In this document: in pieces, positions 39,318 through 64,000 of the stretch
Position numbering within the stretch: position 1 is the stretch's first letter
Layout: each line of letters opens with the position of its first letter
Source of the DNA: a virus
Lineage: Duplodnaviria; Caudoviricetes
Length of the DNA stretch: 64,000 nucleotides
Strand: one strand, 5' to 3'
Virus record (IMG/VR): IMGVR_UViG_3300028048_000063
Location: 1-64,000 of that record
Translations under genes and position numbers: made by a program
Notes under the pieces: model-generated
The model's input: only the letters and a program-made list of their open reading frames with translations
Told to the model about the DNA's origin: nothing
Database searches by the model: none

Positions 39318-40313
39318 TTATAACTCGATCTTCTCTTCTTCTGTTTTATTTTGTGCTTGTTTCTTGAGTTCATGATTCATGATACTCTCGTGATTTTCCA
39401 TACCTCTCCATTTATGAGATACGGCGTGTGTCTTGTTCTCACGTGTCCATAAAGAATAATATGGGCATAAGTTTTTACCAGCCTCTGGTTGATTTGGATT
39501 TGTTGGACAGAAATTACACCAATGACATAGTGGTGATGGGTTTGGTTCGTAATTACCCGCATCAATACCTGTGAATATTTCGTCTAACTTTTTCATACCA
39601 CGCTGCATAAATCCTGGCGTACCAGCTTTTTGTTTTGTTTGACAGAATGGTAAATCATAAAAACATTCTATATCTTCATATGGAACATTTAATGTTGTAT
39701 GCAGAGCATAAACATATACTACAAATTGTAATGGTGTCACAAGCTCTGCGTCTTTAAATAACTTGCCCTTTGTTTTAATATCTTCTACGATGTATTTACC
39801 AGTGTTCTTATTATAGAAAATTCTATCAATAAAACCACTGAGAGTATAACCATTATACGTTACTGAGAAGAATTTTTCCATATCATAGACTTCTAAACCA
39901 GGATTATCTTTAATATAATTTTCTAATCTATAAATACCAAAGTTTAAATAATCCTCTACCTTTGTATTATAAGAAACGCCATTGTCATCTGGTTCGTAAA
40001 ATTCTTCCTTATATTTTTCTTTTAAGATGTTTATTCCATAAACACCGCCCTTTGTATCATATGGTGATGTCTTAGGAATATTGATGTTATAAAATTCGTC
40101 TTTCAATTGGTCATAGTTTATTTCTTCATGATTTTTTAAGCTTCTAGCTATGCTTTCTTCTATATAGTGCAATGTCGTACCTAAATCTGCTGCTAATGAA
40201 TCAACATTAACAAAATGACCGTCAAGGTATGAAAGCTTGTATTTCCATGCGCAGCTATTGTAAACGTTTAGTCGTGAATACGAATATTTAACTGGCTTTT
40301 TATATTCTGCCAT
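39318..40313 (-). CDS. Cas4/RecB-like PD-(D/E)XK exonuclease with probable Fe-S cluster
   Basis: SYSRL...C, GTTLH, E, GFIDRI, EDIKT, QFVVY, CHWCNFC...C. Confidence 0.85.
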   Translation of the reverse strand: MAEYKKPVKYSYSRLNVYNSCAWKYKLSYLDGHFVNVDSLAADLGTTLHYIEESIARSLKNHEEINYDQLKDEFYNINIPKTSPYDTKGGVYGINILKEKYKEEFYEPDDNGVSYNTKVEDYLNFGIYRLENYIKDNPGLEVYDMEKFFSVTYNGYTLSGFIDRIFYNKNTGKYIVEDIKTKGKLFKDAELVTPLQFVVYVYALHTTLNVPYEDIECFYDLPFCQTKQKAGTPGFMQRGMKKLDEIFTGIDAGNYEPNPSPLCHWCNFCPTNPNQPEAGKNLCPYYSLWTRENKTHAVSHKWRGMENHESIMNHELKKQAQNKTEEEKIEL

Positions 40314-41445: not shown

Positions 41446-44157
41446 TTAAAAATCAAAACCGATATCATCATCTTCATCCGAGGTACCTGTATAAGCATTC
41501 TCGAATTTCTCTTCCTTTGTACTATCTAATAAGATTTCAATGTTAGTATCTTCAATAGGAAGAATAATACCTTTACTATCTGTCACGAAGCAATCTGTCC
41601 ATTGGCATACGGATCTATCAAAGTATCCATATAATTTAATATTTTGATAACTACCTGCACGAACTTTATAAATATTAATAACAAAGTTTGGAGCAAGCTC
41701 AAATCCTCTAGCGCAATAACTATCAATAATCGACTGATCAATTTCTCTAACAGGCATAAGAATACAACCAACGTCTACCTTATCTGCTAATGATTTTGCA
41801 GATCTTAAATAAGATGCGTCTAGATCTTTAGCATTCTTATAATCACCTGATAATTGCGAAGCTGTCCATATATAAATACCCAATGTTTTAGCTGCATCTT
41901 TTAATGCAGATGAGAACATAAGTAAAATTTGGTCAGTTCTAAGTCCTTGTACTTTTGTTTGTCTAGCTGCAGATGATGTTATTTTTAAAGTTTCACCTAA
42001 GTAGTCAAATATTACATAATTGACGTTATATAATTGTTTGTATTTTTTAATAATGTTAATAATATCGTTAACATCATAATTGGTAATACTTACAAAATAT
42101 AGATTAGATTGTTCAATTAATTCTATAGCTCTATCAACTCTTTCTTCTTCTCCTGGGGCATATCTACCATCTTTGATATGGTTTTCAGGAACACCACCAA
42201 CGAAAGCCATCCACATTTGTTGACATTCATTTTCTTCTAACTCAGTGGAAATAACTAATACGGACTCTTGCATATTTGTCTTTATCCATGCCTGACGTTG
42301 TACGTCATAATATTCAGGTATAGCAAGATGGCAAGCTTCCGAATTACCGATACGTGTATTGTGCGTAACGATAAAATTCTCCGTCAAGAACAAGTGTTCG
42401 TTATTATCCACTAAGAAACAAGTCATGTCCTCCTGATATCCTAAATCCTCAATTTTAATCATTGGATTGCTTCTATGTTTGTGCGTACCTTTATTATTTT
42501 TAGACTTTTCATACCATGATTGCATTTTTTGGCGTTTTAAACTAAGTTTGAATAATCTATTTTTTAATTCAGGACTACCCATAATTTGTACTAAATATCC
42601 TATGTTAGTGGATTTATGAGTATCAACAAAAATAGATGTTGAGAACCCTAGACTTTGGGCTAATTCAGTAACATCATCTCTTAATTGAGGACTAATTGTA
42701 AAGAAAGATACTCTGCCTCTTTTATCAACACAGCCATCTGTATCTAATAACCCATTTAATAATTCAAATCTATTGTCAATACTATCTTCTAAATATACAC
42801 GCGGTATAAATTTAGTCTGGCTATTTGTATTAATAAGATCTGGATGTTCTTTTAGGGCGTCTCTCACCCAAACATTTTTACTTCCTTTTTTACGGTTAAT
42901 ATTAGAACTTATATCACTAAGATTGTTAAAACTAAAAGTCCATGCATAAGTAGTTTTATGTTTTTTAACTGACCAATTCATTGTGTTACCAATAATAGAA
43001 GGTAATTCTTCATTTGCAGAAGAAAATTCAAGCCCTTTATTAGATTCTTGTTCTTTAAGACAACCGTCTCCTAAAAGTAATCCTAGGATATATGGTGGTA
43101 AAAAGTGCTGTTTTGGGGAATACTCAAGAGCTTGTTGTTGTGGTACCAATATGGTGTATTCACCATTTTGACGTAACGGTTTGTCGTTCATAATCTCTTT
43201 TAAGGTCTTTGTATAAAATATCCTGTCTTCTACAGATTTGATACGCTGACCATTAGAATTATAACTCCACAAATGTTCATCACTACAACGACATGTTCTT
43301 CCGTCTCTAAAAGTTATTTGGTATACTTCTTGTTTACCTTGTGGATATACGCCCAATACTTTAGTAGGATGTCCTTTGGCATCAAATAAATAATCTCCAA
43401 CTTTAATATCTTGTACATTTTTCCATCCTACAGTAGTTGGTATTCTACTACTATTTGGTAACGCTTTGCCGTACCCACTTGGAGCTGACTCTAAGAATAA
43501 ACAACCTCTACGTTGCCCACGTACGATTGTTGTAAGCTTTGGAGAGACTAATGGTAAACCCATTTCAGGAGTTTGTTTAAATCTTTCTTTTAACTCTCTT
43601 AGTCCATCTCCAGCCTTATTTTCAACACGGTCGCTATTACTACCATATTTCTCTTTTGCTAGGATTATCTTTGTTTCTTCTTTCAATAAAATATCGTTTA
43701 TGCTTAAAGCATCAAAATTCTCATACATTCTAGCACTCTCTACTGGATCCACAATATCAGGATCATAGATATCTCGTGTATCAATTCCTTCAGCTTTTAA
43801 GTTATTTATTAAACTATATTTTTTTAGAGTTTGATAATAATAATCAAACTTCTTTTCATCATAAATATTGAGAGCATTCTGTATATACTCTACACCCTTG
43901 TTGTTGCAAAAAACTTTATACTGTACAGTATATTGTTTTAGAAATTGATCTATGTCTATATAGTCAATTTTTTCCATTCCCTTTTTCGCCAAATATTCGA
44001 TAGCCCCGAACAAAATCTTATGAAATTGTTCTGGAAAATCTTCTATTGAAAAGCTATAATTATTATTAGCAAACAATAATGGATTTTTAATTAGTGCCGC
44101 TAATACATGAATTATCGCTAATTTATTGGAAGCTGCATTGTTAACTTCTTGCGACAT
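41446..44157 (-). CDS. dnaB: DnaB-like replicative helicase containing an intein
   Basis: Walker A APSGYGK|T split by the intein, ISTEL, IFDYL, TASQLS, KSLADKVD, KVRAG. Confidence 0.9.
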   Translation of the reverse strand: MSQEVNNAASNKLAIIHVLAALIKNPLLFANNNYSFSIEDFPEQFHKILFGAIEYLAKKGMEKIDYIDIDQFLKQYTVQYKVFCNNKGVEYIQNALNIYDEKKFDYYYQTLKKYSLINNLKAEGIDTRDIYDPDIVDPVESARMYENFDALSINDILLKEETKIILAKEKYGSNSDRVENKAGDGLRELKERFKQTPEMGLPLVSPKLTTIVRGQRRGCLFLESAPSGYGKALPNSSRIPTTVGWKNVQDIKVGDYLFDAKGHPTKVLGVYPQGKQEVYQITFRDGRTCRCSDEHLWSYNSNGQRIKSVEDRIFYTKTLKEIMNDKPLRQNGEYTILVPQQQALEYSPKQHFLPPYILGLLLGDGCLKEQESNKGLEFSSANEELPSIIGNTMNWSVKKHKTTYAWTFSFNNLSDISSNINRKKGSKNVWVRDALKEHPDLINTNSQTKFIPRVYLEDSIDNRFELLNGLLDTDGCVDKRGRVSFFTISPQLRDDVTELAQSLGFSTSIFVDTHKSTNIGYLVQIMGSPELKNRLFKLSLKRQKMQSWYEKSKNNKGTHKHRSNPMIKIEDLGYQEDMTCFLVDNNEHLFLTENFIVTHNTRIGNSEACHLAIPEYYDVQRQAWIKTNMQESVLVISTELEENECQQMWMAFVGGVPENHIKDGRYAPGEEERVDRAIELIEQSNLYFVSITNYDVNDIINIIKKYKQLYNVNYVIFDYLGETLKITSSAARQTKVQGLRTDQILLMFSSALKDAAKTLGIYIWTASQLSGDYKNAKDLDASYLRSAKSLADKVDVGCILMPVREIDQSIIDSYCARGFELAPNFVINIYKVRAGSYQNIKLYGYFDRSVCQWTDCFVTDSKGIILPIEDTNIEILLDSTKEEKFENAYTGTSDEDDDIGFDF
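42358..43464 (-). mobile_element. 369-aa class-3 (Ala1, WCT) intein with LAGLIDADG homing endonuclease
   Basis: Starts ALPNSSRIPT, block B SDEHLW, LGLLLGDG and LNGLLDTDG, block F MTCFLVD, ends IVTHN, +1 Thr. Confidence 0.9.
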
Positions 44158-44167
44158 TTTATATCTC

Positions 44168-44662
44168 CTATAAATCTTCTATTCTATAGTTAATTTTATC
44201 TCTTGGGTTGGTTTGTGTTTTTTGTAAATCTGATTGTTTAATAACGATTTTATTCTCTGGTACGTTTATATCTACAGTTTTATTTATTTCTTTAATTTTA
44301 TTCATTTGTAAAACGTATGCACGTGCGTTTTCATATTGATCTCTAATTGTGTATACAACACCACTGACACTGCCAGTATAACCACAGATCTCATAATAAT
44401 ACCATAAGGTATTCTTAATCCCTTTAAGTTTTTTACCATTGGCGAGTTCTCTATCGATACCCATAACAACTTCTTGAGGGATCTCAGAAATAGCAAACAA
44501 TTGTTTTATATATGTATAGAGTTCTTGTTTGTCTTGTTCTGTCTTTAATAATTCTTCCTGAATAGTTTGATAACAGGAGTAGCAATACCCTTTGCCTTCG
44601 TAGGTATACTTTAACCCTGTTATCTTATTCTTACAAGAATTGCATATGAAAACGTTAGCCAT
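44168..44662 (-). CDS. Zn-finger hypothetical protein adjacent to DnaB (possible loader/accessory)
   Basis: CNSC...CYSC; position only. Confidence 0.65.
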   Translation of the reverse strand: MANVFICNSCKNKITGLKYTYEGKGYCYSCYQTIQEELLKTEQDKQELYTYIKQLFAISEIPQEVVMGIDRELANGKKLKGIKNTLWYYYEICGYTGSVSGVVYTIRDQYENARAYVLQMNKIKEINKTVDINVPENKIVIKQSDLQKTQTNPRDKINYRIEDL

Positions 44663-45519
44663 TAAGCACCATATCCACCTTCAATTAATTTTTGATGTAT
44701 TGCTAATACTGTATCGTATTGATCTTGTGTGGCTGCATTACACTTAAATGTTGTATCTCCTGTCACAGCTTTTACAATTTCATTGTATTCAGCAATGCTC
44801 TTCTTTTGAGTGTTCATATTTTTAACCATTTTACCTATATCAGATATAAGGGTTTTTAAAGGTGTTTTCTCGGAACTTGAATTAGTTGTTGATACTGACT
44901 CTACTTTTGCTCCTGAGGCTGCTACAGGCTCTGAGGATTGATTCTCATCGTTTGTAGCTACTGTGTTGACCATCTTTTTAGCTACAGCGCCTGTTGTTGG
45001 TAATTTCCATGAGAAAACTTTAACATTAGTCTTAGCATTACAGATTTCAAGTTCTGTAATAACTCTTGTATCCTCATTATATGCAATGTGTGTTACAACA
45101 TACTTTGCATAAGGATCTGCTAAATAATATTTACCATTTCTTTCAACTGTACTAACGTCTGCCCAAATTAAAGGACTAGAATAGAGCTCTCTGCCTATGC
45201 CGAGACGGCTACAACAACGTTTGAAAGCATCAGATGCCTCAGCTTTCTTTTCGTTACCATCGCCTTGTTCAGACTCAATACCGCAGTCGCTTTTATAAAC
45301 AAAGTCTTGAGAAGCATCTTCTCTAATACCAATTTCACAGAATAAGTTGCCCTTAACCTCAAAATATCTATTAGTCCAATTCATTGGGCCAACAGCGGCA
45401 TCTAAAATTTTAGCATCTGTACGACTTGTCTTATACAAAAGCATAAGTGCGCCTGTTTTTGTTACTTGTTTGACTTTGACTTCAATGTCTTCTGATGTTA
45501 ATAGTGGAAAATTAATCAT
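44662..45519 (-). CDS. Rad52/Sak-like single-strand annealing protein
   Basis: ILDAAVGPMNW, CEIGI, KSDCG, KAEASDAFKRCCSRLGIGRELY. Confidence 0.85.
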   Translation of the reverse strand: MINFPLLTSEDIEVKVKQVTKTGALMLLYKTSRTDAKILDAAVGPMNWTNRYFEVKGNLFCEIGIREDASQDFVYKSDCGIESEQGDGNEKKAEASDAFKRCCSRLGIGRELYSSPLIWADVSTVERNGKYYLADPYAKYVVTHIAYNEDTRVITELEICNAKTNVKVFSWKLPTTGAVAKKMVNTVATNDENQSSEPVAASGAKVESVSTTNSSSEKTPLKTLISDIGKMVKNMNTQKKSIAEYNEIVKAVTGDTTFKCNAATQDQYDTVLAIHQKLIEGGYGA

Positions 45520-45551
45520 GTTTGGTTCCTCCTTATTTTCCGTTTGTTAAT

Positions 45552-45580
45552 ATTATACTGGATCATTTATTTTTTTTCAA
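45552..45580 (-). promoter_or_regulatory. phage promoter family member
   Basis: TTGAAA-17 nt (ending ATCCAG)-TATAAT. Confidence 0.75.
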
Positions 45581-46216
45581 CTAGTTTTTATCTATATTTA
45601 AAAATTTTGAGTAAAAACTTTCTCCTAAGCTTGCTACTGGAATAAATCTTCCTTTTTCACCTGCTAAATGAATTACTCCTAATTTTAATTTTTCTTGATC
45701 AGATATATATCCTGATTGTACTGCCCCTCTTGCATATAAATTCAATTGAGCTGTGACGAGTTGACGGTGTATTGTTGATGTTGTCTTAAAGTCTGCTAAT
45801 GTTAATTCATTATTAACTGTACATAATAAATCAAAACGTCCTGCAGATACAGGGATATGGTTATCGTCATATAAGACTATGACCTTCTCTGTTAAGATAG
45901 GTTTGATCTTATATATTTCTTCTACAAAAGTAAAATAATTACTTGTTTCTTGATATGAAAAACTTAAAGGAATATCGGGACTTTCTTTACGCATCTCTAT
46001 CAATTCTTGTAATTCGTTATGAACGGCTGTGCCATAATCGGCGGCCCTCTTTAATACCTCTGGATTTACATTGGCATAAGGATTGCCATACACCTTTGAT
46101 AATAAAGTTGTAATACTTGGCAATTCCTTATCGTCAACGAAATACTGATGTGTCTCTGGATAAAAATCCACAGACACGCCAGTTGGTAATAGAAAAGTTT
46201 CTTTTTCTGTTATCAT
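45581..46216 (-). CDS. PD-(D/E)XK exonuclease
   Basis: PSITTLL, GTAVH, TE, AGRFDLL, DFKTT, QLNLY. Confidence 0.85.
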   Translation of the reverse strand: MITEKETFLLPTGVSVDFYPETHQYFVDDKELPSITTLLSKVYGNPYANVNPEVLKRAADYGTAVHNELQELIEMRKESPDIPLSFSYQETSNYFTFVEEIYKIKPILTEKVIVLYDDNHIPVSAGRFDLLCTVNNELTLADFKTTSTIHRQLVTAQLNLYARGAVQSGYISDQEKLKLGVIHLAGEKGRFIPVASLGESFYSKFLNIDKN

Positions 46217-53674: not shown

Positions 53675-56600
53675 TTATGATCTACGCATATTTTTTGTTA
53701 AATTTGCTCTAGTCTTAATTGAATCAACAAACGCCTCAGCATCGAAAGATCCGTCAGCAGTTACGTTCATTGTAAGTGAATTAATATTAAATGATTCATC
53801 TACAACATCAGCTTGACTTGAGCCAATATGATCTGGCATAATTGATGGTCCAATGAGACGTAAAATTGCAGGAGCAACTTCGCCAAGAGCCCACAAATTC
53901 TTAGTAATATCAGCAGGAACTATACCTGTACGAGATGGCAAAGCTGTTATGGTACCAGAAGGAGTAATAATCGCTTCTGTACCAAGCTCATTAATTAATG
54001 ATGTTTGAATTCCATTAATTCCTAATGTTCCATATTTGTGTTCTTTAGCTGTATCTGAATGAACTAATCCGCCAGAAACCCAGTCAGTACCAACATTTTT
54101 TGCAACCTTGAGAGCAGTGTAAGAACCATCAGAATTTACTAATACATATTCATGACCACCAAGCATACCCCCAATAATCAGTTGTTGACCAGATGTTAAA
54201 GATACGTCTTGAGATAATTGCTTAAATAATTTTTCTGGGGTTCTGAGGTTCTTATAATCTTTCCACATATTGCGTCCTTTATAACCAGCAACCTCTTTTA
54301 AGTTATAATGGTTGACTGTCCCGTCTGCATTTAAAACAAAGGCAATTGCATTTTCCTCTGTTTGGAACCCATTTCCACCAGACCAAGCATCAGCACCACC
54401 ACCATGATCTTGAAAAATATCTTGGACAATCCAATTTGCAATACTTGTTGCTTCATTTTGCTCTGAATCGTAAAGTGTACGAACCCAATCCCCTTTATCT
54501 CCTAAATTATAAACAGTTGCATCATATTTTTCTAATCCAGTAGTTTGCGTTTTAGCACTACCTGCATTAATTACAGAAGCTTTCTCTCCTGGCTGTTTTC
54601 CAAAAGTAGATGTTAATCCTTCTGTTTCACTGTAAGAAATGTTGCTATATTGATCTTTATTTCCTTGATATTGATTTATAGCCGCAGCTTGGATTTGATT
54701 CATTGTTCCACCTAAAGATTCTGCCTTTTTTGCTTGTTTTTGATATTTCAACAATGCATCAGCAGTGCCAGTGTTTTCATACTCTAAAAGTAATTTTGCA
54801 GCCTCGTCAACTGCTTTGTTAGCTTGTTCTTCTTGTGTACCGAATTTATCTTCGAGCATATCTGATAGCTTTTTTACAGAACCTTGTGTTGCAGCTGATG
54901 CGCTAGCAAGTCCTGTCATATTGTTTTGGAAGCCACCTTCACCAGATTTAAGTATATATTCTTCAAAAGCTTCGCTTTCTTTACGTTGTAACTCTAAAGT
55001 TTGCTCTGCGTACATATTATCCCACTGATCTTTAATTGTTTGTAAAATATTGGTTTGCTGTTCAAGCATTGAGATTTGCTTATTTTGTTGTACATTTTCT
55101 AGATCTTCTTGAGCTTTAGCGATAGCGCCTTGGTCGGCTTCATATACGAAACCAACACCCGCTCTATACACACGTTGTTTTTCATTAAGAGCATTGTCTA
55201 GTCGTAATTGTGCTTCTATTAATTGATTTTGATATTCTCTTTGTTTATTTATTTCTTGTAAAGCTGATTTTTGAGCTTCTAAGTTAGACAATTGTTTTTC
55301 TAATTCTTTACTCTGTGTCTCTGCATATCTTTGTAAAAATTCTTTGTAGGCATCAGAAACAATATTATACTCATCACCAACTTCTTTAATAATTTGTTTA
55401 AGCTCTGTGACTCCAGATACACTTTCATCATATCCTAAGACTCTGTCCCACAATTTTTGTAAATTTTCTGCACCAATTGTTTCTATTAAATCTTCAATAT
55501 CTTGTGCTTTCTTAGCATCTGTTTCTCTTATTTTATTAATGCCAGACTTAATAGTGGCGTACCCTACATCGTCCTTAGTCTTTAATTCTTCATAGAAAGC
55601 GCTGGAATTCATAAGTTCACTAAATTGAGAATTGAATCCAGCCTCAATTAAACCACCAATCTTTTTCATAATTTGTTCCATTAATCGAGGAGTATCTGAC
55701 ATGTATGCGATAAGCTCTGGATATTTAGATACCAATTCACTCATCCATTTAGTAGCAGACTTTGTACTATCTGCAATTTCAGACATTAAAGAACCGTATT
55801 CTTCAATAGAAGTTACGTCTTCTGTTGTTGATTGTAAAATTTCAGATAATTTTAGCATTCCTTGAGAACTTTCCATGCTCGCAAGTTCGTCAACAGACAC
55901 ACCTAACGCATTTGCAAAGTTTTGTAAACGACGTTGTACATATTCGTCTGCTGCGTCTTGACGTAATGTTTCAGACAACGTATATGCTTTACCAGAAAGG
56001 ACTTTTTCAAAACCTTCGTCTGCTGCAGAAAGCTCAGACTCAATCATCTGTTTAGCATATTCTGTAACATCCCCGGCTGGATTATCTTTATCTGTAAACG
56101 TATAATATCCTTGTAAAGCACCACTTTCTAATAATTGATCAGCGACTAATTTAATAATAGTAGAGGCTCCAATATTCTTTTTTTGTTCATCAGATAATTC
56201 ATCTATAAAAGATCCAACTCCCGCTAAACGTTCTTCTTCTGTAGCTAATCTCCATTGATTTGTTTGTGAGTCTTTAATAAATTGAGCTTGTGCTATTGCT
56301 TCTCTTGTTCTTTCTTTATTAGTAGTTTTAATATTTTGTAATATCATAGAAGTTGTATCAGATATTACTGAAAGCATTTCATCAACGCTAGTTAGACGAG
56401 CCTCTGCCCCTTCTACTTTATTATCAATATCTTGTAATATTTGATTACGTTCGTTTCTAAGATCTTCTTCTTTTTCAAAAACATTTTTAGCATTCCATTC
56501 TTGGAATTCCTCTTCTTGTTTTTTAGCAATAGCTGCTTCTGTCTCTTTAGTTCCGATAGCTGCGCTACCAACAGTACTTAAGACAGCACCGCCAGCTAAA

Positions 56601-59600
56601 AGACCTGCCCCAAGCAATGCGCCGACACCCGTCGCCATTAAAGCTGTGCCTACTGCCATCATAGCCGCACCACCTACAGTAGCTGCTACTGTGCCTCCGT
56701 GGTTTTTACCACTTAAAGCATCTGCTTTACCTTCGTTGGAAAGTCCTGTAGCAGAGTCATATCCTTTTTGACCTTTTCTATATGCAAGATACTTATTTTT
56801 ACTTATATCAGTATTTTGTTGCTTGTATAATGCGGCTTCCCTTGCTTTAGCATTCGCTTCATTTTCTGTTTGTAATTGTGCTATTTTTAGCCTTCTAGCA
56901 GCATCTTTTCTCTCTTTTTCGTTACCGTTTTCATATTTATCTAATAAAGAATATACTGTTTCTCCTCCTAACTTTTGTTGTATTTTAAGACGAGCTTCTT
57001 GATTATCTTCATTATATAATGTTGATGTAATTGCTTCTATGGCTTCTCTCATTTTTTCTGAACTAAAGTTATCGTTAGAAGCAATATCAGATAATGTATT
57101 AACGCTACCTGAAATATCTTTCATAGCTGAAACAATTTTAGATGATTTTTCGGCTAATGTATCCATGCTGTCTTTGACGCGATCAATAGATGCCATTACT
57201 TTTTGAGCATGGGCTTCGCCAATAATCTGGCCCACAACAGGAACTAAAGTTGTCCATGCTTGAGCGATTTTACCACCTTGCTTACGTGCTGCTTCACTAG
57301 ATTGTACATCCTTCCCTTCTGCGTTTTTATGTGTCTGTCCAATCATTTGATATGCTGTCCATCCAGCCATAACTTGATTAAGAGCAATAGATGCGCCAGC
57401 TACAGCTGCACCTGCAGCAGCACCGCCACCACCAGCTTTAGCTACGCCTTTAGAGAAATTGGCTGATACTTTACCACGGAAGGTATTTGGAGATAATGCT
57501 TTTGAAGCTTTACCTGGTCCAATAGATCCAACAGATGCTGGCTGTTGCATATTCCAAATTTGGCTAGCTTTTTTAAGATCTCTATTTTTTAATAATGCTC
57601 CCCATGCACGAATTTTTCTAGTACGATATAATTGATTCTCTTTTGCAGTATTAGCATATTGTGTATTATAACGATCAATATCTGTCGCTGTTAAATTAGA
57701 CAAATCACCTTTTTCTTTTGCTGCTAATGTATCATTAAATTTAGATTGATAATATGCTTTAGCATGATCAGAAGGTGTACCTTTTTCTAAATCAGAATAA
57801 TATTGCAATTTAGAATCAAATACGCTATTAACAAGAGTGTTGTTTTTAGCACCAGTGCCCATATTTAATCCGGTTGAAACTACAGCGCCTGTATTATTAA
57901 CATTGTTAGCTTGCCCACCTGTGCCTAGGAAACCTCGAATACGTTGTTGTAATTTTTGACGCATTGTTAACGTATTATTCGATCCGCCACTTGTTAAACG
58001 TTTGGCTAAGACACCAGCTTCTCCTCTTAAGAACATTCTCATCTTGCTACCAAAATTTAAACCTTGAGGAAGATCTGATATTCTACCAAAAACATCTTTT
58101 CCTAAAATTTTATTTAATCCTTTAGCGATAAATGATTTGCCAGATAATGCTCTGAAGTTTTGTATAGTAAAGAAGATATTAACTAAATGCTTAATTAATT
58201 TTGGTAATAACTCGACAAGTTTAGTGCCAAATTTTACTATTTTTGTTAATAATTCATTGACCTCAGATCTGTTCATGAAGTCTTGCAATGCCGCGGTAAA
58301 TGAGTTTTTAGCTGCTTCAAAAGATTCTTGGTATGCATTACCATACTTCTTTTCAGCAGTACCTTTAGAATTTTCTGAAACTTCTAATAAATCTTCATAT
58401 TTATCCCAGTTTTGTAATAATGTTACGAAAGCTTCTTGTTGTCTAATACCAGCAAAAGCGGTAGCAACGGCTTTTTGAGAAACTCTATCTAGGGTTCCCC
58501 ATTTTTCTGCAATCTCACCTAAAACTTCGTCGAAATCTTTAAATTCAAGGTTACTCTTTCTAATAGAGATACCGAGTTTATTTAAAACTCTTTCAACATC
58601 GTTGATATTTACACTTTCATCTGAAGATTCAGAATCGACATTTAATTTACCATAAGCACCAGCTTTAACATTACCATAACGTGAAATAATAGTTTTTAAA
58701 GCCTGACCAGCACTTGATCCTGACATCTGTGTTACGTCAGAAATTGTTGCTACATATGCAGCAGCTTGGTCGATGTTTACACCTGCCAAACTACCTAAGT
58801 TAGCAAATTGTGCTAAACCTTGTGCAATTTCACCAGCAGATGTTGCTGCCTTCATATCAATAGCTGTTAATTTATCAACAACATCCATTGATTCAGAAGC
58901 TTGTAACTTGAACCCCTTCAACGCACTTGTTAAGCTTTGTGTTGCTGTAGAAGCATCCATCATACCTAACTTGCTTAAATACATTGAGGATTTAACAAGA
59001 TCAAGAACTTCTGCAGTCTCATAACCCTGTCTCAACCATTCTACAGCACTACTTGCAACTTCTGTTGTTGTTGCCCCTATAGCTTTACCAAGGTTTGCAT
59101 ACTCTGTAATTAAAGCTCTCGTACTTGTTTTACTATCACCAGTAACGATTCGCAAATTTGCCATAACTTTATCAAGAGCTATAGCTTGAGCGATTAACTT
59201 AGATATACTTTGTATTAATCTCCTTAAAACCATATGGAGACCATAGCCTTTGGCTAATCCAGCTACAGTTGCGCCGATTTTGCCTTCAAAACGATCAATG
59301 ACACCAGGTTTATTATTTAAGACTTTTAGTCTTTCACTATATAACAACCTAGCTTTATCTTCTTCTAAAGCATTTTGATCGTCTTTGCCTTCATGCTTAG
59401 ATTGTAATTCATAATTTTGTTTTTCTTGCTCTGCAACTTCAAGACGAGCTTGTAATTCTTCACGTTCGATTTGTAATAATCTTCTCTGTGTAGGATCTGT
59501 CGTTCTATTATAACTTTCAGTATTTTTATCTAAATTAAATAATGCTTCATAATATCCACCGTATGCCTTGAAAGCTGCTGATTGACGCTGTGTTTTTCCT

Positions 59601-62600
59601 TGTGCTATACCTAATTTAGTAAGTCCTTCTGCTGTTTGATCAACATATGCAGCATTTGGGGCACTCTTTTGAATATTATCGAGAATATTTTGTAATCTAG
59701 TTTTTTCTGCTTGTGTTAAACCTTTCTTAGTAGCTAAAACTTTTTGAATATTCTTTTGATAGCTATCGATATAGTTATTGATTTCTGTGTCTAGTGTATT
59801 CTTTATATTATTTAACTCTAACTCTAGTCTACTTCTCTCTTCTGGGCCTAGTATAGCATTCTCATCATTTAATTGTTTATCAATAATAGCATATCGTTGC
59901 TCAAGACTTGATTTTTGACTGTATAGTTCTTGTAAATCACTTAAGTTATCATATACACCCTGTTTCTTTTGTAATGCTTGGATAGTTTTTAATTTTTGTT
60001 TATATGTTTTAAAACTAGTAGTATCTCCACCGAGCGACTTATCTCCATATATAGCTTCTTCTCTGTCTATTATAACTTGATTTAAAGCAATTGCATCAGA
60101 TAGCGCTGTGATTTGTTCATCTATCTCACTAGTATCACGCCCATTCTTAGCTAAGCCTGTTTGTTTAATTTTTAATTCGTCTAACGCTTTTTGATATTTT
60201 ATATTTTCTTTTTGCGCTTTAAACCACTTATTTAGGCCGAATGTTCCTTGTCTGTGTTGTTGCTTCCAGTCATTATCTGTTGAGCTATTTATTACAGTAT
60301 TAAATCGTTGTTTAAACGTATCAAAGTCGTCAGTCATTAAAGAATGAACCAAAATTCCTGCATCTTTATCGCTTAAACCTATTTCTGTAAAACTCTTAAT
60401 CATATCTTGCTGTGAAGCAAATTTCCCCGCTCTAACGATACCTAAAGCTTCTAAAATACCATTAGTACCTTTGTTAGTGAAGAAATTATCACGCAACTGT
60501 GTTAACTCTGTTTGTTCCTCTGGGGTGATTGTATGATCCGCTTTTTTATCTTCTAAAGCGTTCATTCTTAATGCATCGTTTCTGTATTTCACCATAGCTT
60601 TATGGGCCGCTAATTGCTGAGCTTTTAATTGCGTTGTGGTACCGCTTCCTTGTGATGATACAGATGTAATATATTGTTGAACGTGTTGTAATGCTTGGAT
60701 TTGTTCTGCTTCGTCTTTATAAATAGCACTACTAGGATTTTTACGCATTCTGGCGAATATCTCTTGAACGAAAGGATCTTGAATGGCTCTCTTAAGATCT
60801 ACACGACTAGCTTCTGTAATACCAGTCATTGCACCTTTATTTAAGAATATTTCAATATCGTCTGCCAATCCAGCCATTGTTAAAATTTCTTGTACTGTCT
60901 TAGCATCTCCACCATTTAATGTATATAACGCTTCCCAGATATCGGCACCTTTACCAACTGATTTTCCATCAGTATAACCTCTGAAGCTACCTTTTGCGCC
61001 AAAAAGCGAGTCAAGAAGTTTTTGGTTCTTTTGAGTAATATGTCCTTTACCTGTCCTGGTATCAGTTCGAATTTTACGTAAAACAGATTTTTCTTGATTT
61101 GTTAATGTTTCTTCTAAGATACCTTGCAATCCAGTAGCCATAGAAGCATAGAACATTGTTTGTAAAATATTAGTTCCGGTCGGAGCCCCGGCTTTATTGG
61201 CAGTTTTAATATCCCCAATACTCCAAATTAATCTACCAGTTTGCTCAGCTTTAACCTGCGTTTGTAATTTATCTAAAACTTGTTTTTCATCTTTAGATAA
61301 TTTACTCTTATCTACACTAGCTAACGCTTTTTCTAAATTATCTCTTGATAAATTTTCAGTATCGCCAGGTACCCACTGATAAGCAGCAGCTTCTGCCGCC
61401 AATGATTGCCAATATGTTGAGCCAACATCTCGTCTCCCCCAACCAAAAATAGAATTATCAATACGGCCATAGCCTCTACCATAATCTGTTAAAGCCCCTA
61501 TCAGTCCAACTTCAGAACTAAACTTAGCATTTTTCAATGCCTTAGCGTCAATTGTTGTCCTACCTCCTTGGGTTTTAGTTAAACCAAGAGCTCTAATAGT
61601 ATTCACGGCTAATGATAAACCTAATTTTTTAAGATCATTTTCTGCATCTAAAAGATCAGAAGCCACACCAGTTGGATTATATCTCCTCATGACGTCAAAA
61701 TATTTTTTTATTTGTACGCCAGCACCACCATGGTCTTCTTTATCTTTTTGATTGGGTTTTTTATTCCACTTTGTGTTTAAAGTGGTACCAATCTTTTCAT
61801 TTAATTTCGTAACTTCATCATCCGTAATTGTATCAAAAAGACCTTTACTAAATATATCCATTAATTCAGCTGGACTTTCTAAAAGATCTTGTGCAATTTT
61901 ATGAGCAATATTACCTTTTTCAATAATTCTAAATGTATTTAAATATTGCTTTTGTGCTTCTAATGAACCAAAATCTAAATTTTTATCAACAATATCTCTG
62001 GTTTGTGCTTCATAATCGTAATGATTTTTGTTGTAATAATATGGTAATGTATTACCTAAAATACGAGTAGGGGTTAAAGCGCTCTTATCAAAATCGAAAC
62101 TCCCACCTTTAGCAGCAAAACCTTTATATGCTGCCATGGTATTTAATCCCATACTTCTACGATTAAATAATTGTTCAGTAGCTTGTTTATTTATTTCGTT
62201 TAATTCTAATTCTTGCTGTTTAAGACTTACGGAATCTAAATAGTCTTGTGTAAACCAGAACGTTTTACCATCGTCTGATATGATCGCCCCATTAGCAATC
62301 ATCTTTTGAATTTGCTCGTCAGTAAATCGACCATTTGGTCCAGCTGCTTTACCAACATTAAAAAACGTATTTTCTGAAGCTTTATAAATTGTAGCAGCTT
62401 TTGGTAAAATAGCACGCTTGTTAGCCCATATGTCGGTTAAAGATGCGGCCTTAATTGTTTTACCATTTTCACCTAAAATAGATATTGGATTTTTCTTTAA
62501 TGCACTATTTAAATAATCTACAGCATTGCCTATACTGTTTTCTGTTATTTTAATATTACTTAAAGCTTTTTCTGCTTTCTTTGGATCTATAAATTCATGT

Positions 62601-64000
62601 TGATCATTCATCTTTAGATCAGGCAATATACTCTTTAATGTATTACCATCTAACCCAAAAATGCTACCTAAACCGTTTAAATACCCTGTCTGATCTTGAA
62701 ATTTTTCGGCCAATAATAACATTTCAGCAATTGGCAAAATTCCCAATCTGGTTTGAGCTTGATCGTCCCCGAATAATCCTAATCTACCGCTTTTAAAAAT
62801 CCCAGCTTTTTGTGCTTTTTTAATAATGTTCTTAACTTTTGCACCGCTATCCCATGTGTTTTTATCATTGATTGCGGCGTATAAATCTGATAACTGACTT
62901 TCGAATCCAATTGCTTCATCTGCTGACATCTTTTTTGCAGATATACTCGCTTGTTCAAATATACTTAAAAAATGCCCTAATAAGTTTGATGCCGCAGAGA
63001 ACTTACTTTCTTCTGCCGTGCCCCATGACGATGACTTATCATGCATAGCATTCATGAATCCTTGACGAACATTACTAAACATACCAACATATGCCTTACC
63101 AGTCTTAGTTAAAATAACATCTCGTGCCTGGTCTTCTTCTGATGGGAATAAGTCCTCTAATGTTTTTTTATCTGGTGTCTTAGGACGTCCTTCGTTAAAT
63201 AAACGTTCGTATGCAGTCAATCTTGCTACAGTATCTTGCATAGCTTTTACTTTATCAAGCTGACCCGCACCAACAAGTGCACCAACAAGTGTGTCTCCAT
63301 CAAAGTCTGCGTTTAATAATCTAATTAAAGATTCATCACCGCCTACTATACTATGTTTTTCTTTACCCCATAAAGGGTTAACTAACAATTTTGCAGCTAA
63401 AACGTCTTTATCACCTAATAAACTTGGATATCTATTAAGCAAAACAGCTAAACCTCTAGATAAACTTTGGTCTGTACCTTTACCAAGAGTTATGCTATCA
63501 ATAATTTTATTTTTTAGCCAGCCTTGTTGAGATCTTACTAATCGTTTGTCAAATCCTTCTTTATCCTTATTTTCTTCTACAAATTTTTGTAATCCTGTGT
63601 CCATTTGGGCTTGTACTTCTTCTTTTGTTAAACCCATAATGTCCATATAGTAAGCCATTAATTGATCTGACCATCCTTCAACTTCACCTTCTGCTGGACT
63701 AAGAAGTTGATTCATCATATGTCTGGAGACAACTATAGCATTCTTTGTATATGCCTGTAAATTTGCATTTACATCTATAGGAACGCCAGCTTGTTGTGCT
63801 TGCGCTTGTCTCTGCATTATCTTATCATAATCAATTGTTGCAAAGTCAATAACTTTTCCTTGGAAGGAATGTCCTAAAGCAACTTTAGTAGCTTGGTCAT
63901 ATGTAGAAGAATCTTTTAATGTCAATTGTTCTAATTCTTTATCACGAAGTTCTTGAACTTTTTCTGCTGCTTTTGTTGCTATTTCTTTTCTATTTGTTCC
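53675..64000 (-). CDS. giant tape-measure protein fused to a double-psi beta-barrel RNA-polymerase region and a PD-(D/E)XK nuclease-like domain (5'-truncated)
   Basis: Frame open to the window edge; VLLNRYPSL and NADFDGD; GNIAH/GRID/GDIKT/QTMFY; TP901-type TMP core (EVASSAVEWLRQG...VVDKLTAID...SGSSAGQALKTIISR); TM segments; C-terminal INELGTEAIITP. Confidence 0.88.
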   Translation of the reverse strand, partial: GTNRKEIATKAAEKVQELRDKELEQLTLKDSSTYDQATKVALGHSFQGKVIDFATIDYDKIMQRQAQAQQAGVPIDVNANLQAYTKNAIVVSRHMMNQLLSPAEGEVEGWSDQLMAYYMDIMGLTKEEVQAQMDTGLQKFVEENKDKEGFDKRLVRSQQGWLKNKIIDSITLGKGTDQSLSRGLAVLLNRYPSLLGDKDVLAAKLLVNPLWGKEKHSIVGGDESLIRLLNADFDGDTLVGALVGAGQLDKVKAMQDTVARLTAYERLFNEGRPKTPDKKTLEDLFPSEEDQARDVILTKTGKAYVGMFSNVRQGFMNAMHDKSSSWGTAEESKFSAASNLLGHFLSIFEQASISAKKMSADEAIGFESQLSDLYAAINDKNTWDSGAKVKNIIKKAQKAGIFKSGRLGLFGDDQAQTRLGILPIAEMLLLAEKFQDQTGYLNGLGSIFGLDGNTLKSILPDLKMNDQHEFIDPKKAEKALSNIKITENSIGNAVDYLNSALKKNPISILGENGKTIKAASLTDIWANKRAILPKAATIYKASENTFFNVGKAAGPNGRFTDEQIQKMIANGAIISDDGKTFWFTQDYLDSVSLKQQELELNEINKQATEQLFNRRSMGLNTMAAYKGFAAKGGSFDFDKSALTPTRILGNTLPYYYNKNHYDYEAQTRDIVDKNLDFGSLEAQKQYLNTFRIIEKGNIAHKIAQDLLESPAELMDIFSKGLFDTITDDEVTKLNEKIGTTLNTKWNKKPNQKDKEDHGGAGVQIKKYFDVMRRYNPTGVASDLLDAENDLKKLGLSLAVNTIRALGLTKTQGGRTTIDAKALKNAKFSSEVGLIGALTDYGRGYGRIDNSIFGWGRRDVGSTYWQSLAAEAAAYQWVPGDTENLSRDNLEKALASVDKSKLSKDEKQVLDKLQTQVKAEQTGRLIWSIGDIKTANKAGAPTGTNILQTMFYASMATGLQGILEETLTNQEKSVLRKIRTDTRTGKGHITQKNQKLLDSLFGAKGSFRGYTDGKSVGKGADIWEALYTLNGGDAKTVQEILTMAGLADDIEIFLNKGAMTGITEASRVDLKRAIQDPFVQEIFARMRKNPSSAIYKDEAEQIQALQHVQQYITSVSSQGSGTTTQLKAQQLAAHKAMVKYRNDALRMNALEDKKADHTITPEEQTELTQLRDNFFTNKGTNGILEALGIVRAGKFASQQDMIKSFTEIGLSDKDAGILVHSLMTDDFDTFKQRFNTVINSSTDNDWKQQHRQGTFGLNKWFKAQKENIKYQKALDELKIKQTGLAKNGRDTSEIDEQITALSDAIALNQVIIDREEAIYGDKSLGGDTTSFKTYKQKLKTIQALQKKQGVYDNLSDLQELYSQKSSLEQRYAIIDKQLNDENAILGPEERSRLELELNNIKNTLDTEINNYIDSYQKNIQKVLATKKGLTQAEKTRLQNILDNIQKSAPNAAYVDQTAEGLTKLGIAQGKTQRQSAAFKAYGGYYEALFNLDKNTESYNRTTDPTQRRLLQIEREELQARLEVAEQEKQNYELQSKHEGKDDQNALEEDKARLLYSERLKVLNNKPGVIDRFEGKIGATVAGLAKGYGLHMVLRRLIQSISKLIAQAIALDKVMANLRIVTGDSKTSTRALITEYANLGKAIGATTTEVASSAVEWLRQGYETAEVLDLVKSSMYLSKLGMMDASTATQSLTSALKGFKLQASESMDVVDKLTAIDMKAATSAGEIAQGLAQFANLGSLAGVNIDQAAAYVATISDVTQMSGSSAGQALKTIISRYGNVKAGAYGKLNVDSESSDESVNINDVERVLNKLGISIRKSNLEFKDFDEVLGEIAEKWGTLDRVSQKAVATAFAGIRQQEAFVTLLQNWDKYEDLLEVSENSKGTAEKKYGNAYQESFEAAKNSFTAALQDFMNRSEVNELLTKIVKFGTKLVELLPKLIKHLVNIFFTIQNFRALSGKSFIAKGLNKILGKDVFGRISDLPQGLNFGSKMRMFLRGEAGVLAKRLTSGGSNNTLTMRQKLQQRIRGFLGTGGQANNVNNTGAVVSTGLNMGTGAKNNTLVNSVFDSKLQYYSDLEKGTPSDHAKAYYQSKFNDTLAAKEKGDLSNLTATDIDRYNTQYANTAKENQLYRTRKIRAWGALLKNRDLKKASQIWNMQQPASVGSIGPGKASKALSPNTFRGKVSANFSKGVAKAGGGGAAAGAAVAGASIALNQVMAGWTAYQMIGQTHKNAEGKDVQSSEAARKQGGKIAQAWTTLVPVVGQIIGEAHAQKVMASIDRVKDSMDTLAEKSSKIVSAMKDISGSVNTLSDIASNDNFSSEKMREAIEAITSTLYNEDNQEARLKIQQKLGGETVYSLLDKYENGNEKERKDAARRLKIAQLQTENEANAKAREAALYKQQNTDISKNKYLAYRKGQKGYDSATGLSNEGKADALSGKNHGGTVAATVGGAAMMAVGTALMATGVGALLGAGLLAGGAVLSTVGSAAIGTKETEAAIAKKQEEEFQEWNAKNVFEKEEDLRNERNQILQDIDNKVEGAEARLTSVDEMLSVISDTTSMILQNIKTTNKERTREAIAQAQFIKDSQTNQWRLATEEERLAGVGSFIDELSDEQKKNIGASTIIKLVADQLLESGALQGYYTFTDKDNPAGDVTEYAKQMIESELSAADEGFEKVLSGKAYTLSETLRQDAADEYVQRRLQNFANALGVSVDELASMESSQGMLKLSEILQSTTEDVTSIEEYGSLMSEIADSTKSATKWMSELVSKYPELIAYMSDTPRLMEQIMKKIGGLIEAGFNSQFSELMNSSAFYEELKTKDDVGYATIKSGINKIRETDAKKAQDIEDLIETIGAENLQKLWDRVLGYDESVSGVTELKQIIKEVGDEYNIVSDAYKEFLQRYAETQSKELEKQLSNLEAQKSALQEINKQREYQNQLIEAQLRLDNALNEKQRVYRAGVGFVYEADQGAIAKAQEDLENVQQNKQISMLEQQTNILQTIKDQWDNMYAEQTLELQRKESEAFEEYILKSGEGGFQNNMTGLASASAATQGSVKKLSDMLEDKFGTQEEQANKAVDEAAKLLLEYENTGTADALLKYQKQAKKAESLGGTMNQIQAAAINQYQGNKDQYSNISYSETEGLTSTFGKQPGEKASVINAGSAKTQTTGLEKYDATVYNLGDKGDWVRTLYDSEQNEATSIANWIVQDIFQDHGGGADAWSGGNGFQTEENAIAFVLNADGTVNHYNLKEVAGYKGRNMWKDYKNLRTPEKLFKQLSQDVSLTSGQQLIIGGMLGGHEYVLVNSDGSYTALKVAKNVGTDWVSGGLVHSDTAKEHKYGTLGINGIQTSLINELGTEAIITPSGTITALPSRTGIVPADITKNLWALGEVAPAILRLIGPSIMPDHIGSSQADVVDESFNINSLTMNVTADGSFDAEAFVDSIKTRANLTKNMRRS

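Follow-up and report, generated by a model that had tools for sequence, protein, structure and literature searches.

Does the giant tape-measure protein of a large phage carry, between an RNA-polymerase-like region and its tape-measure core, a nuclease that travels into the host cell with the phage DNA, and if so, on what would this nuclease act? The question is raised by a stretch of 64,000 nucleotides (nt) of the IMG/VR virus record IMGVR_UViG_3300028048_000063 (positions 1 to 64,000 of 150,079 bp), hereafter called the window. The tape-measure gene is a single minus-strand open reading frame (ORF) of 4512 codons, the product of which is referred to as P0002; its start codon lies outside the window at base 67213 of the virus record. 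A preliminary description of the window, made from the letters of the sequence, had placed a RecB/Cas4-like nuclease domain between the polymerase and tape-measure regions. This proposal is borne out in its RecB-type part by residue conservation, by the predicted fold, by homologues that exceed the cut-off of the Pfam family PDDEXK_1 and by a link found with hhalign: residues 1705-2175 of P0002 very probably form a PD-(D/E)xK nuclease fold with an intact catalytic set, and the order within the protein is N-terminal RNA-polymerase-like region, nuclease, tape-measure core.

The six motifs by which the domain had been recognised (LTPTRI, KGNIAH, SEVGL, GRIDNSIF, IGDIKT, and LQTMFYA) are all present, and in this order, in the translation of the minus-strand frame, the motif-bearing feature being encoded on the minus strand. 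The interval 61140-62085 that had been assigned to the domain does hold these motifs, but it is too short, as the domain reaches around 450 nt beyond its lower bound, to around 60689. Similarly, the insert between GRID and DIKT, given previously as about 75 amino acids, comes near the actual value: the Asp of GRID and the Asp of DIKT are 81 residues apart, so that the insert itself comprises around 65 residues. Close homologues of P0002 are rare, since only three (P0003, P0004, and P0005, of 4426-4870 residues each, all three from Logan assemblies) are found in 5.8 billion clusters; together with P0002 they constitute the window lineage of four sequences, termed subfamily A. The features of the domain are the following (helix and strand numbers are those of the fold model; pLDDT, predicted local distance difference test):

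60689 (about) to 62101, minus strand: whole nuclease domain, P0002 residues 1705-2175, predicted from fold model, homologue conservation, and hhalign link
62060 to 62074, minus strand: TPTRI, N-terminal S/T-x-S/T motif, invariant in subfamily A
61901 to 61915, minus strand: GNIAH, G-x-x-x-H helix motif of RecB/AddB/Cas4-type nucleases; G and H invariant in subfamily A; model helix 47-75
61712 to 61738, minus strand: EDHGGAGVQ block (ED-x-GG-x-x-x-Q); E, D, G, G, and Q invariant in the four subfamily A sequences
61505 to 61519, minus strand: SSEVG with the motif I glutamate (codon 61511-61513), Glu invariant in subfamily A; short model strand 193-195
61457 to 61468, minus strand: GRID with the motif II aspartate; G, R, and D invariant in subfamily A; model strand 216-222 directly after it
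61235 to 61435, minus strand: helical insertion of around 65 residues within the beta2-beta3 catalytic hairpin, predicted as three helices (pLDDT 79-89)
61202 to 61225, minus strand: WSIGDIKT, motif III D-x-K-T; D and K invariant in 13/13 aligned domains; model strand 290-300
61148 to 61165, minus strand: LQTMFY, motif IV Q-x-x-x-Y; Q and Y invariant in 13/13 domains; model helix 309-332
60800 to 60859, minus strand: C-terminal beta hairpin predicted to close the nuclease core; model strands 415-423 and 429-434 (pLDDT around 84); outside the earlier interval

Concerning conservation, all twelve residues named for the motifs (12/12) are invariant across the four homologues, which share 28-45% identity over the domain; the background is low, with only 53 of the 471 positions of the subfamily A domain alignment being invariant. 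The predicted catalytic residues are, in P0002 numbering, D1919, D2001, K2003, Q2018, and Y2022. The motif pattern by itself is only modestly unusual and would not carry the claim of a nuclease alone: when the 4512-residue protein was shuffled 2000 times, the ordered six-motif pattern arose in 16 and the loose three-motif core in 331 of the shuffled sequences. Conservation constitutes the stronger and independent test.

Relatives of the domain were reached by way of the stand-alone Cas4-type nuclease of the same phage, which led to related phage contigs, among them those designated G001 and G003. Both possess giant tape-measure ORFs, the N-terminal 2400 residues of which exhibit no BLAST similarity to P0002, with NRxPT and DMDGD motifs at around residue 1230-1250 and a compact RecB-type core around 580 residues after DMDGD (e.g., QIADILYKVGNELIVGDYKT...LQVKDY). 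A scan of metagenome contigs with the tape-measure core yielded 12 loci, and nine of these contain a DxDGD motif followed 560-670 residues later by the compact core, in which the spacing between the motif II Asp and DxK is canonical (10-21 residues). Taken over all giant tape-measure genes examined, 14 of 17 contain a RecB-type nuclease with intact catalytic motifs between polymerase and tape measure. These sister domains can be assigned directly. Against a gathering threshold of 22 bits for PDDEXK_1 (PF12705), those of the loci L032 and L024 score 32.2 and 30.9 bits, whereas that of G003 reaches 18.3 bits (E 0.0025); furthermore, sister domains match the PHROG phage exonuclease families 69 (E 1.5e-7) and 298 (E 4.9e-10) and the NCBIfam model of AddA (E 2e-6). 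In an alignment of nine domains from outside the window lineage (A9), the only invariant columns are the G of GxxxH, E, D, D, K, Q, and Y. The hhalign comparison of subfamily A with these nine gives a probability of 83.6% and an E-value of 8e-6 over the block from DxK to QxxxY, and a second, alternative alignment, colinear with the first, covers TPTRI...GNIAH (E 0.008). Since the sister domains pass the PDDEXK_1 cut-off and are joined to the window domain by the hhalign link, the latter is a diverged member of the same family; its membership in PDDEXK_1, judged from these sequence comparisons, is thus transitive, via the sister domains, and not direct.

The motifs upstream of DxK have counterparts in the other lineages as well. 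SPS, SPT, or TPT is found at the place matching TPTRI, and GTLAH, GLISH, or GSITH stands for GNIAH; a Glu at motif I and the Asp of motif II are invariant also in A9. The joint MAFFT alignment of all 13 domains (A8; 11-30% identity) misplaces the upstream motifs of subfamily A, setting GRID under the GxxxH columns of the others, and was used for the DxK and QxxxY columns only; the upstream motifs were read from the within-group alignments A4 and A9 and from a table of spacings. These spacings differ between the groups: from the motif II Asp to DxK there are 75-89 residues in the window lineage versus 10-21 in the other lineages, and from GxxxH to the motif I Glu 127-145 versus 51-89. The window lineage thus possesses two lineage-specific insertions, the one in the catalytic hairpin of around 65 residues and a further one of around 50 residues. 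The hairpin insertion is variable in sequence and length among the homologues and absent from G001, G003, and L021-L032. The EDHGGAGVQ block is situated within the other insertion, between GxxxH and the motif I Glu, where model confidence is low.

Concerning the fold, the structure predicted by AlphaFold2 (AF2) is restriction-endonuclease-like, as the preliminary description had led one to expect. The second of two AF2 models (m6ed7308c9e0e; residues 1705-2175, four sequences) has a mean pLDDT of 61 and a predicted template modelling score (pTM) of 0.61. It runs from a strand near SSE and a strand right after GRID through the three confident insertion helices to a long strand over RLIWSIGDIKT, the QTMFY helix, further helices, and the closing hairpin. 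With moderate confidence only, this predicted order of elements fits the alpha-beta-beta-beta-alpha-beta core of the superfamily. When the model was compared exhaustively with 48,161 chains by VIA-align and the best 50 rows were examined, around 22 of these were PD-(D/E)xK nucleases. The top matches were MGME1 (Z 7.1), RecE (5.8), and LHK-Exo (5.5), followed by Cas4 SSO0001 (5.5), the nuclease of AddA (5.5), the Cas4 structure 7mi4 (5.4), and RecB (4.8); Hjc (three entries), AdnA, Dna2, ACE1, NucS, BpuSI, and MspI are likewise among the best 50. Cap-snatching endonucleases appear among the weaker matches (e.g., 7ewu, Z 4.8), and P450s and helical hairpins, which match the helical parts only, make up the rest. 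What carries weight in this search of a predicted structure is how many of the top rows come from a single superfamily, and more narrowly from its branch of end-processing exonucleases.

Several results weigh against the assignment as a nuclease. In the second model, the pLDDT drops below 50 around the motif I Glu and GRID, and the first AF2 model (residues 1690-2060, pLDDT 56) exhibits low-confidence helices at the motif regions. Foldseek found nothing significant for the second model in PDB or BFVD (nor any match for the first), and the Z-scores of 5-7 obtained with VIA-align are under the level at which one match alone is trustworthy. At the sequence level, the segment of the window has no match in Pfam (E up to 1) or PHROG, a search of PDB sequences with the profiles A1 and A4 gave no match for it, and a six-frame search with PF12705 over the whole phage record misses it and matches only the two stand-alone nuclease genes. 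The insertion of around 65 residues in the beta2-beta3 hairpin is, moreover, unusual for the family and could affect activity. Other searches were equally negative: tblastn against 50,697 phage records gave no match for the nuclease segment, phmmer against 1.84 billion representatives returned the protein itself only, a word-indexed protein search for mid-length forms (679-2000 amino acids) gave none for the segment, scans of viral, genome, and metagenome contigs with the profiles A1 and A2 gave no match, the best score in the ESM Atlas search (0.75) was uninformative, and hhalign with a shallow profile found no link to the two stand-alone nucleases of the phage. The poor first model is treated as a truncation artefact and not as evidence against the fold, because it ended before the conserved closing hairpin DIEIFLNKG...ITEASRV, which by alignment lies around 100 residues beyond residue 2060.

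As to the class of nuclease, both the motif set with its order, from S/T-x-S/T to QxxxY (with DxK[TN]), and the predicted core topology agree with those of PDDEXK_1 and of the PHROG exonuclease families 69 and 298. Members of PDDEXK_1 are, however, stand-alone or joined to helicases, whereas the domain of P0002 is embedded in a virion tape-measure protein of 4512 residues. MGME1 of humans, RecE of E. coli, and the lambda-exonuclease-like LHK-Exo combine the PD-(D/E)xK core with extra helical elements, as does the predicted domain of P0002; these three are named exonucleases, and the likeness extends over 120-162 aligned residues at only 12-16% identity and moderate Z. The term Cas4-like, used in the preliminary description, holds only loosely. 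Fold and catalytic motifs are shared with Cas4 SSO0001 (PDB 4ic1; PMC3466216), but Cas4 and AddB are marked by a 4Fe-4S cluster, whereas the 471 residues of the P0002 domain and the domains of its three closest homologues contain not a single cysteine, so that an iron-sulphur cluster is precluded and a strict Cas4 assignment was rejected. Given the intact set of S/T-x-S/T, GxxxH, Glu, GxxD, DxKT, and QxxxY, the domain is probably a Mg2+-dependent DNase; an active metal-dependent nuclease is expected because no other part of the domain is as highly conserved as the catalytic set.

The two regions that flank the nuclease are located as follows:

53675 to 64000, minus strand: part of the P0002 gene within the window, 3441 of 4512 codons; the frame continues past the window end
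58451 to 59095, minus strand: tape-measure core, Pfam PhageMin_Tail (PF10145), E 5.5e-30, downstream of the nuclease
63293 to 63313, minus strand: NADFDGD, metal-binding motif of two-barrel RNA polymerases, upstream of the nuclease, invariant in the homologues
63419 to 63445, minus strand: VLLNRYPSL, in the polymerase-like region

The match to PhageMin_Tail spans residues 1636-1850 of the ORF as counted in the window, and PHROG tape-measure families match the same core. The assignment of the upstream region to RNA polymerases rests on short motifs and weak scores: at NADFDGD, the Pfam match to RNA_pol_Rpb1_2 is below threshold (E 0.012), and hhalign aligns the motif of P0002 with the NADFDGD of E. 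coli beta-prime at E 0.005, while the polymerase-like region (62114-64000 on the minus strand, and upstream) gave neither a tblastn match in the 50,697 phage records nor a PDB sequence match. The lineages with DFDGD and those with DMDGD have the same layout, yet no mutual BLAST similarity over around 2400 N-terminal residues.

A fusion of RNA polymerase and tape measure is known from gp96 of the Thermus phage P23-45, which is found in virions and for which RNA synthesis has been shown (PMC10770324). In that phage, the tape measure is proposed to act as a channel, at the inner mouth of which incoming DNA encounters the fused polymerase (PMC10770324). P0002 resembles gp96 in its general organization, a DxDGD motif occurring in the N-terminal part of the same ORF that contains PhageMin_Tail. 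Both are giant tape-measure proteins (5002 residues in gp96, 4512 in P0002) with an N-terminal two-barrel polymerase region marked by DFDGD; there are, however, differences. In blastp comparisons of the polymerase regions, only a stretch of eight residues around DFDGD is aligned (E 3.9), the best match anywhere (E 0.005) lies in the C-terminal tape region, and homology of P0002 to gp96 was rejected for lack of similarity beyond DFDGD. Furthermore, gp96 contains no DxK...QxxxY pattern and no PDDEXK match in Pfam, only Peptidase_M23, and the paper describing it makes no mention of a nuclease (PMC10770324). The earlier statement that no triple fusion of polymerase, nuclease, and tape measure had been described therefore stands as far as the nuclease in between is concerned, as literature searches gave none, but the fusion of polymerase and tape measure had already been published (PMC10770324).

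What such a domain would do is best explained, and in our view likely so, by a nuclease of the PDDEXK_1 branch that is housed in the tape-measure protein and processes entering DNA. Because it lies between the polymerase-like region and the tape-measure core of the same protein, the nuclease would be built into the virion, and at infection it would exit the tail together with the tape measure. Its tether would then place it where the tape-measure channel opens into the cytoplasm, and there, being covalently joined to the tape measure, it would find its easiest substrate in the leading end of the entering phage genome. This end might be processed by 5' resection or by single-strand cutting, and the product, a 3'-tailed or single-stranded stretch, could be used for loading of the sigma-less polymerase, for recombination, or for circularisation; a 3' tail could also feed the Rad52-like annealing protein of the phage itself (44662-45519). 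Action in cis on the entering genome had been suggested in the preliminary description, and we adopt it tentatively, rating it at somewhat below an even chance.

That the nuclease specifically serves the fused polymerase is a narrower claim, and we consider it doubtful. Core-type polymerases are able to start promoter-free on 3'-tailed templates. In the sister locus L024 (on the metagenome contig AUXO011896808.1, with the ORF starting from locus base 2696), however, the tape-measure protein that carries the PDDEXK_1 domain (residues 815-1025) shows no DxDxD motif anywhere upstream of the tape core. The nuclease is therefore not necessarily dependent on the polymerase, and the idea that it exists to serve the latter is weakened. 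The N-terminus of L024 contains FIQDTETTG, which resembles the ExoI motif of DnaQ-type proteins and has no match in Pfam, and L024 may be a tape measure with two nucleases and no polymerase. Similarly improbable is the most elaborate form of the proposal, in which one ejected polypeptide would couple channel formation, resection of the 5' strand, and promoter-free transcription from a 3' single-stranded tail by a sigma-less two-barrel polymerase; the polymerase would perhaps help to pull the DNA in, and the helical arm in the catalytic hairpin might thread the strand or hand it over.

Other explanations concern the substrate, the activity, or the nature of the domain. An active nuclease might be aimed at nucleic acids of the host or of competitors, i.e., the chromosome, plasmids, DNA of superinfecting phages, or the DNA or RNA parts of defence systems, and L024, with PDDEXK_1 and a DnaQ-like DTETTG but no polymerase motif, fits such a general DNA-degrading payload. 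RecB/Cas4-type nucleases, however, mostly require ends or single strands, and these an intact host chromosome does not offer. A precedent is offered by the "polyvalent" proteins that phages and conjugative elements inject, the DNase domains of which were proposed to destroy the DNA of hosts or rivals (PMC5512222); like P0002, these proteins are large, multidomain, delivered together with DNA, and equipped with enzymatic modules for early infection, but the DNases in that survey are only ParB-like, and neither "Tape measure" nor "RecB" occurs in its text (PMC5512222). Moreover, the reach of the domain would be short, as it is covalently joined to a tape measure thought, by inference, to form the channel through the envelope (PMC10770324), and altogether we regard a host or rival target as unlikely. 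An RNA target, with an endonuclease beside the polymerase that cuts or releases nascent pre-early transcripts, is paralleled in arrangement only by bunyaviruses and influenza virus, the polymerases of which are joined to a PD-(D/E)xK endonuclease; in 14 giant proteins the polymerase-like region is indeed followed immediately by the domain, and cap-snatching endonucleases do occur among the weaker structural matches (7ewu, Z 4.8). Nevertheless, the nearest sequence families are DNA exonucleases (the PHROG exonucleases, AddA, PDDEXK_1), the best structural matches are DNA end-processing enzymes, and L024 has the domain without a polymerase motif, which makes this reading highly unlikely.

The nuclease fold could act as a structural or DNA-end-binding module that cuts hardly or not at all and, for example, shields the leading end from host RecBCD or AddAB; virion proteins that protect DNA ends occur in other phages, gp2 of T4 being one, and the insertion that the window lineage has in its catalytic hairpin is large and could disturb catalysis. 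Inactive PD-(D/E)xK domains, however, usually lose their catalytic residues, whereas the only columns without variation in the 13 domains, despite identities of 11-30%, are those of D, D-x-K, Q, and Y, and E is invariant within each group as well, so that we give such a passive role very little credence. Least of all would we expect the segment to be no nuclease at all but a polymerase accessory or linker with coincidental motifs. The lack of a direct family match for the segment, the appearance of the loose core in 16% of shuffles, and the empty Foldseek results would agree with this, but it is already largely refuted by the invariance of all 12 predicted residues, by the fold topology with its enrichment of PD-(D/E)xK matches, and by the homologous domains above the Pfam cut-off together with the hhalign link (E 8e-6).

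Tape-measure-fused virion RNA polymerases were first described in 2024, for a small group of Thermus phages (PMC10770324), and in the literature no description was found of a PD-(D/E)xK nuclease embedded in a tape measure or of a nuclease between polymerase and tape measure. The comparison of sequences suggests a known enzyme fold in a new and recurrent architecture, namely a nuclease within the protein that delivers the DNA, and it suggests that phages with this design inject a nuclease together with their DNA. An analogous but sequence-unrelated counterpart of the Thermus design appears to be present in a clade of uncultured phages. If the nuclease cuts the entering genome, this bears on how injected sigma-less polymerases find their template, on how linear genomes are prepared for circularisation, and on how genome ends survive host RecBCD or AddAB; if it attacks host or rival DNA, it would represent a new kind of injected weapon. 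D1919, D2001, and K2003 are targets for point mutation and provide a testable handle.

The phage is SPbeta-like, a large siphophage whose host is uncultured. The clade in which such giants are found comprises uncultured phages of around 95-155 kb with SPbeta-like genes, one related contig being labelled as human gut metagenome. Neighbouring genes encode YorF- and YorH-like proteins, an intein-bearing DnaB, a primase, a Cas4-type nuclease, and a split DnaE. Both stand-alone nucleases to which the domain had been compared in the preliminary description are genuine, as each matches PDDEXK_1: the Cas4-type one (ORF 39318-40313) does so with E 7e-20 and has the C...CxxCxxC set, and the other (ORF 45581-46216; 211 residues) does so weakly (E 8e-4). 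The latter adjoins, within 44662-46216 on the minus strand, a protein of 285 residues with weak similarity to Rad52/Mgm101 (44662-45519), and the two look like an exonuclease/annealase recombination pair, which is conserved in L001-L003. The DnaB-type helicase at 41446-44157 (minus strand) contains an intein with a LAGLIDADG homing endonuclease (Pfam LAGLIDADG_3, Hom_end, Intein_splicing). At 6918-9206 (minus strand), a superfamily 2 helicase of 762 residues (ResIII E 1.5e-8, weak Helicase_C) exhibits a GxxD...DIKT...QxxxY pattern in its C-terminal third, and from its sequence it may be a helicase-nuclease fusion and the fourth RecB-type nuclease of the phage.

Among the related tape-measure proteins, L026 and L027 possess shorter N-terminal parts (1161 and 1781 residues) with no polymerase motif, nuclease motif, or nuclease match in Pfam; the N-terminal cargo of the tape-measure family is therefore modular. 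In G001 (IMGVR_UViG_3300028591_000100; 154.7 kb), the tape-measure gene is interrupted in its conserved core at bases 108072-109390 (L010). The interruption of around 1.3 kb holds an ORF of 357 residues (108218-109288) and could be an intron or homing-endonuclease insertion, or else an assembly or frameshift problem. In the virus record containing the window (G000), which is labelled linear without end repeats, bases 1-244 are repeated at 149836-150079 with 99.6% identity; on account of this end repeat of 244 nt, the ends of the record were rejected as physical genome ends, the assembly being circular or terminally redundant.

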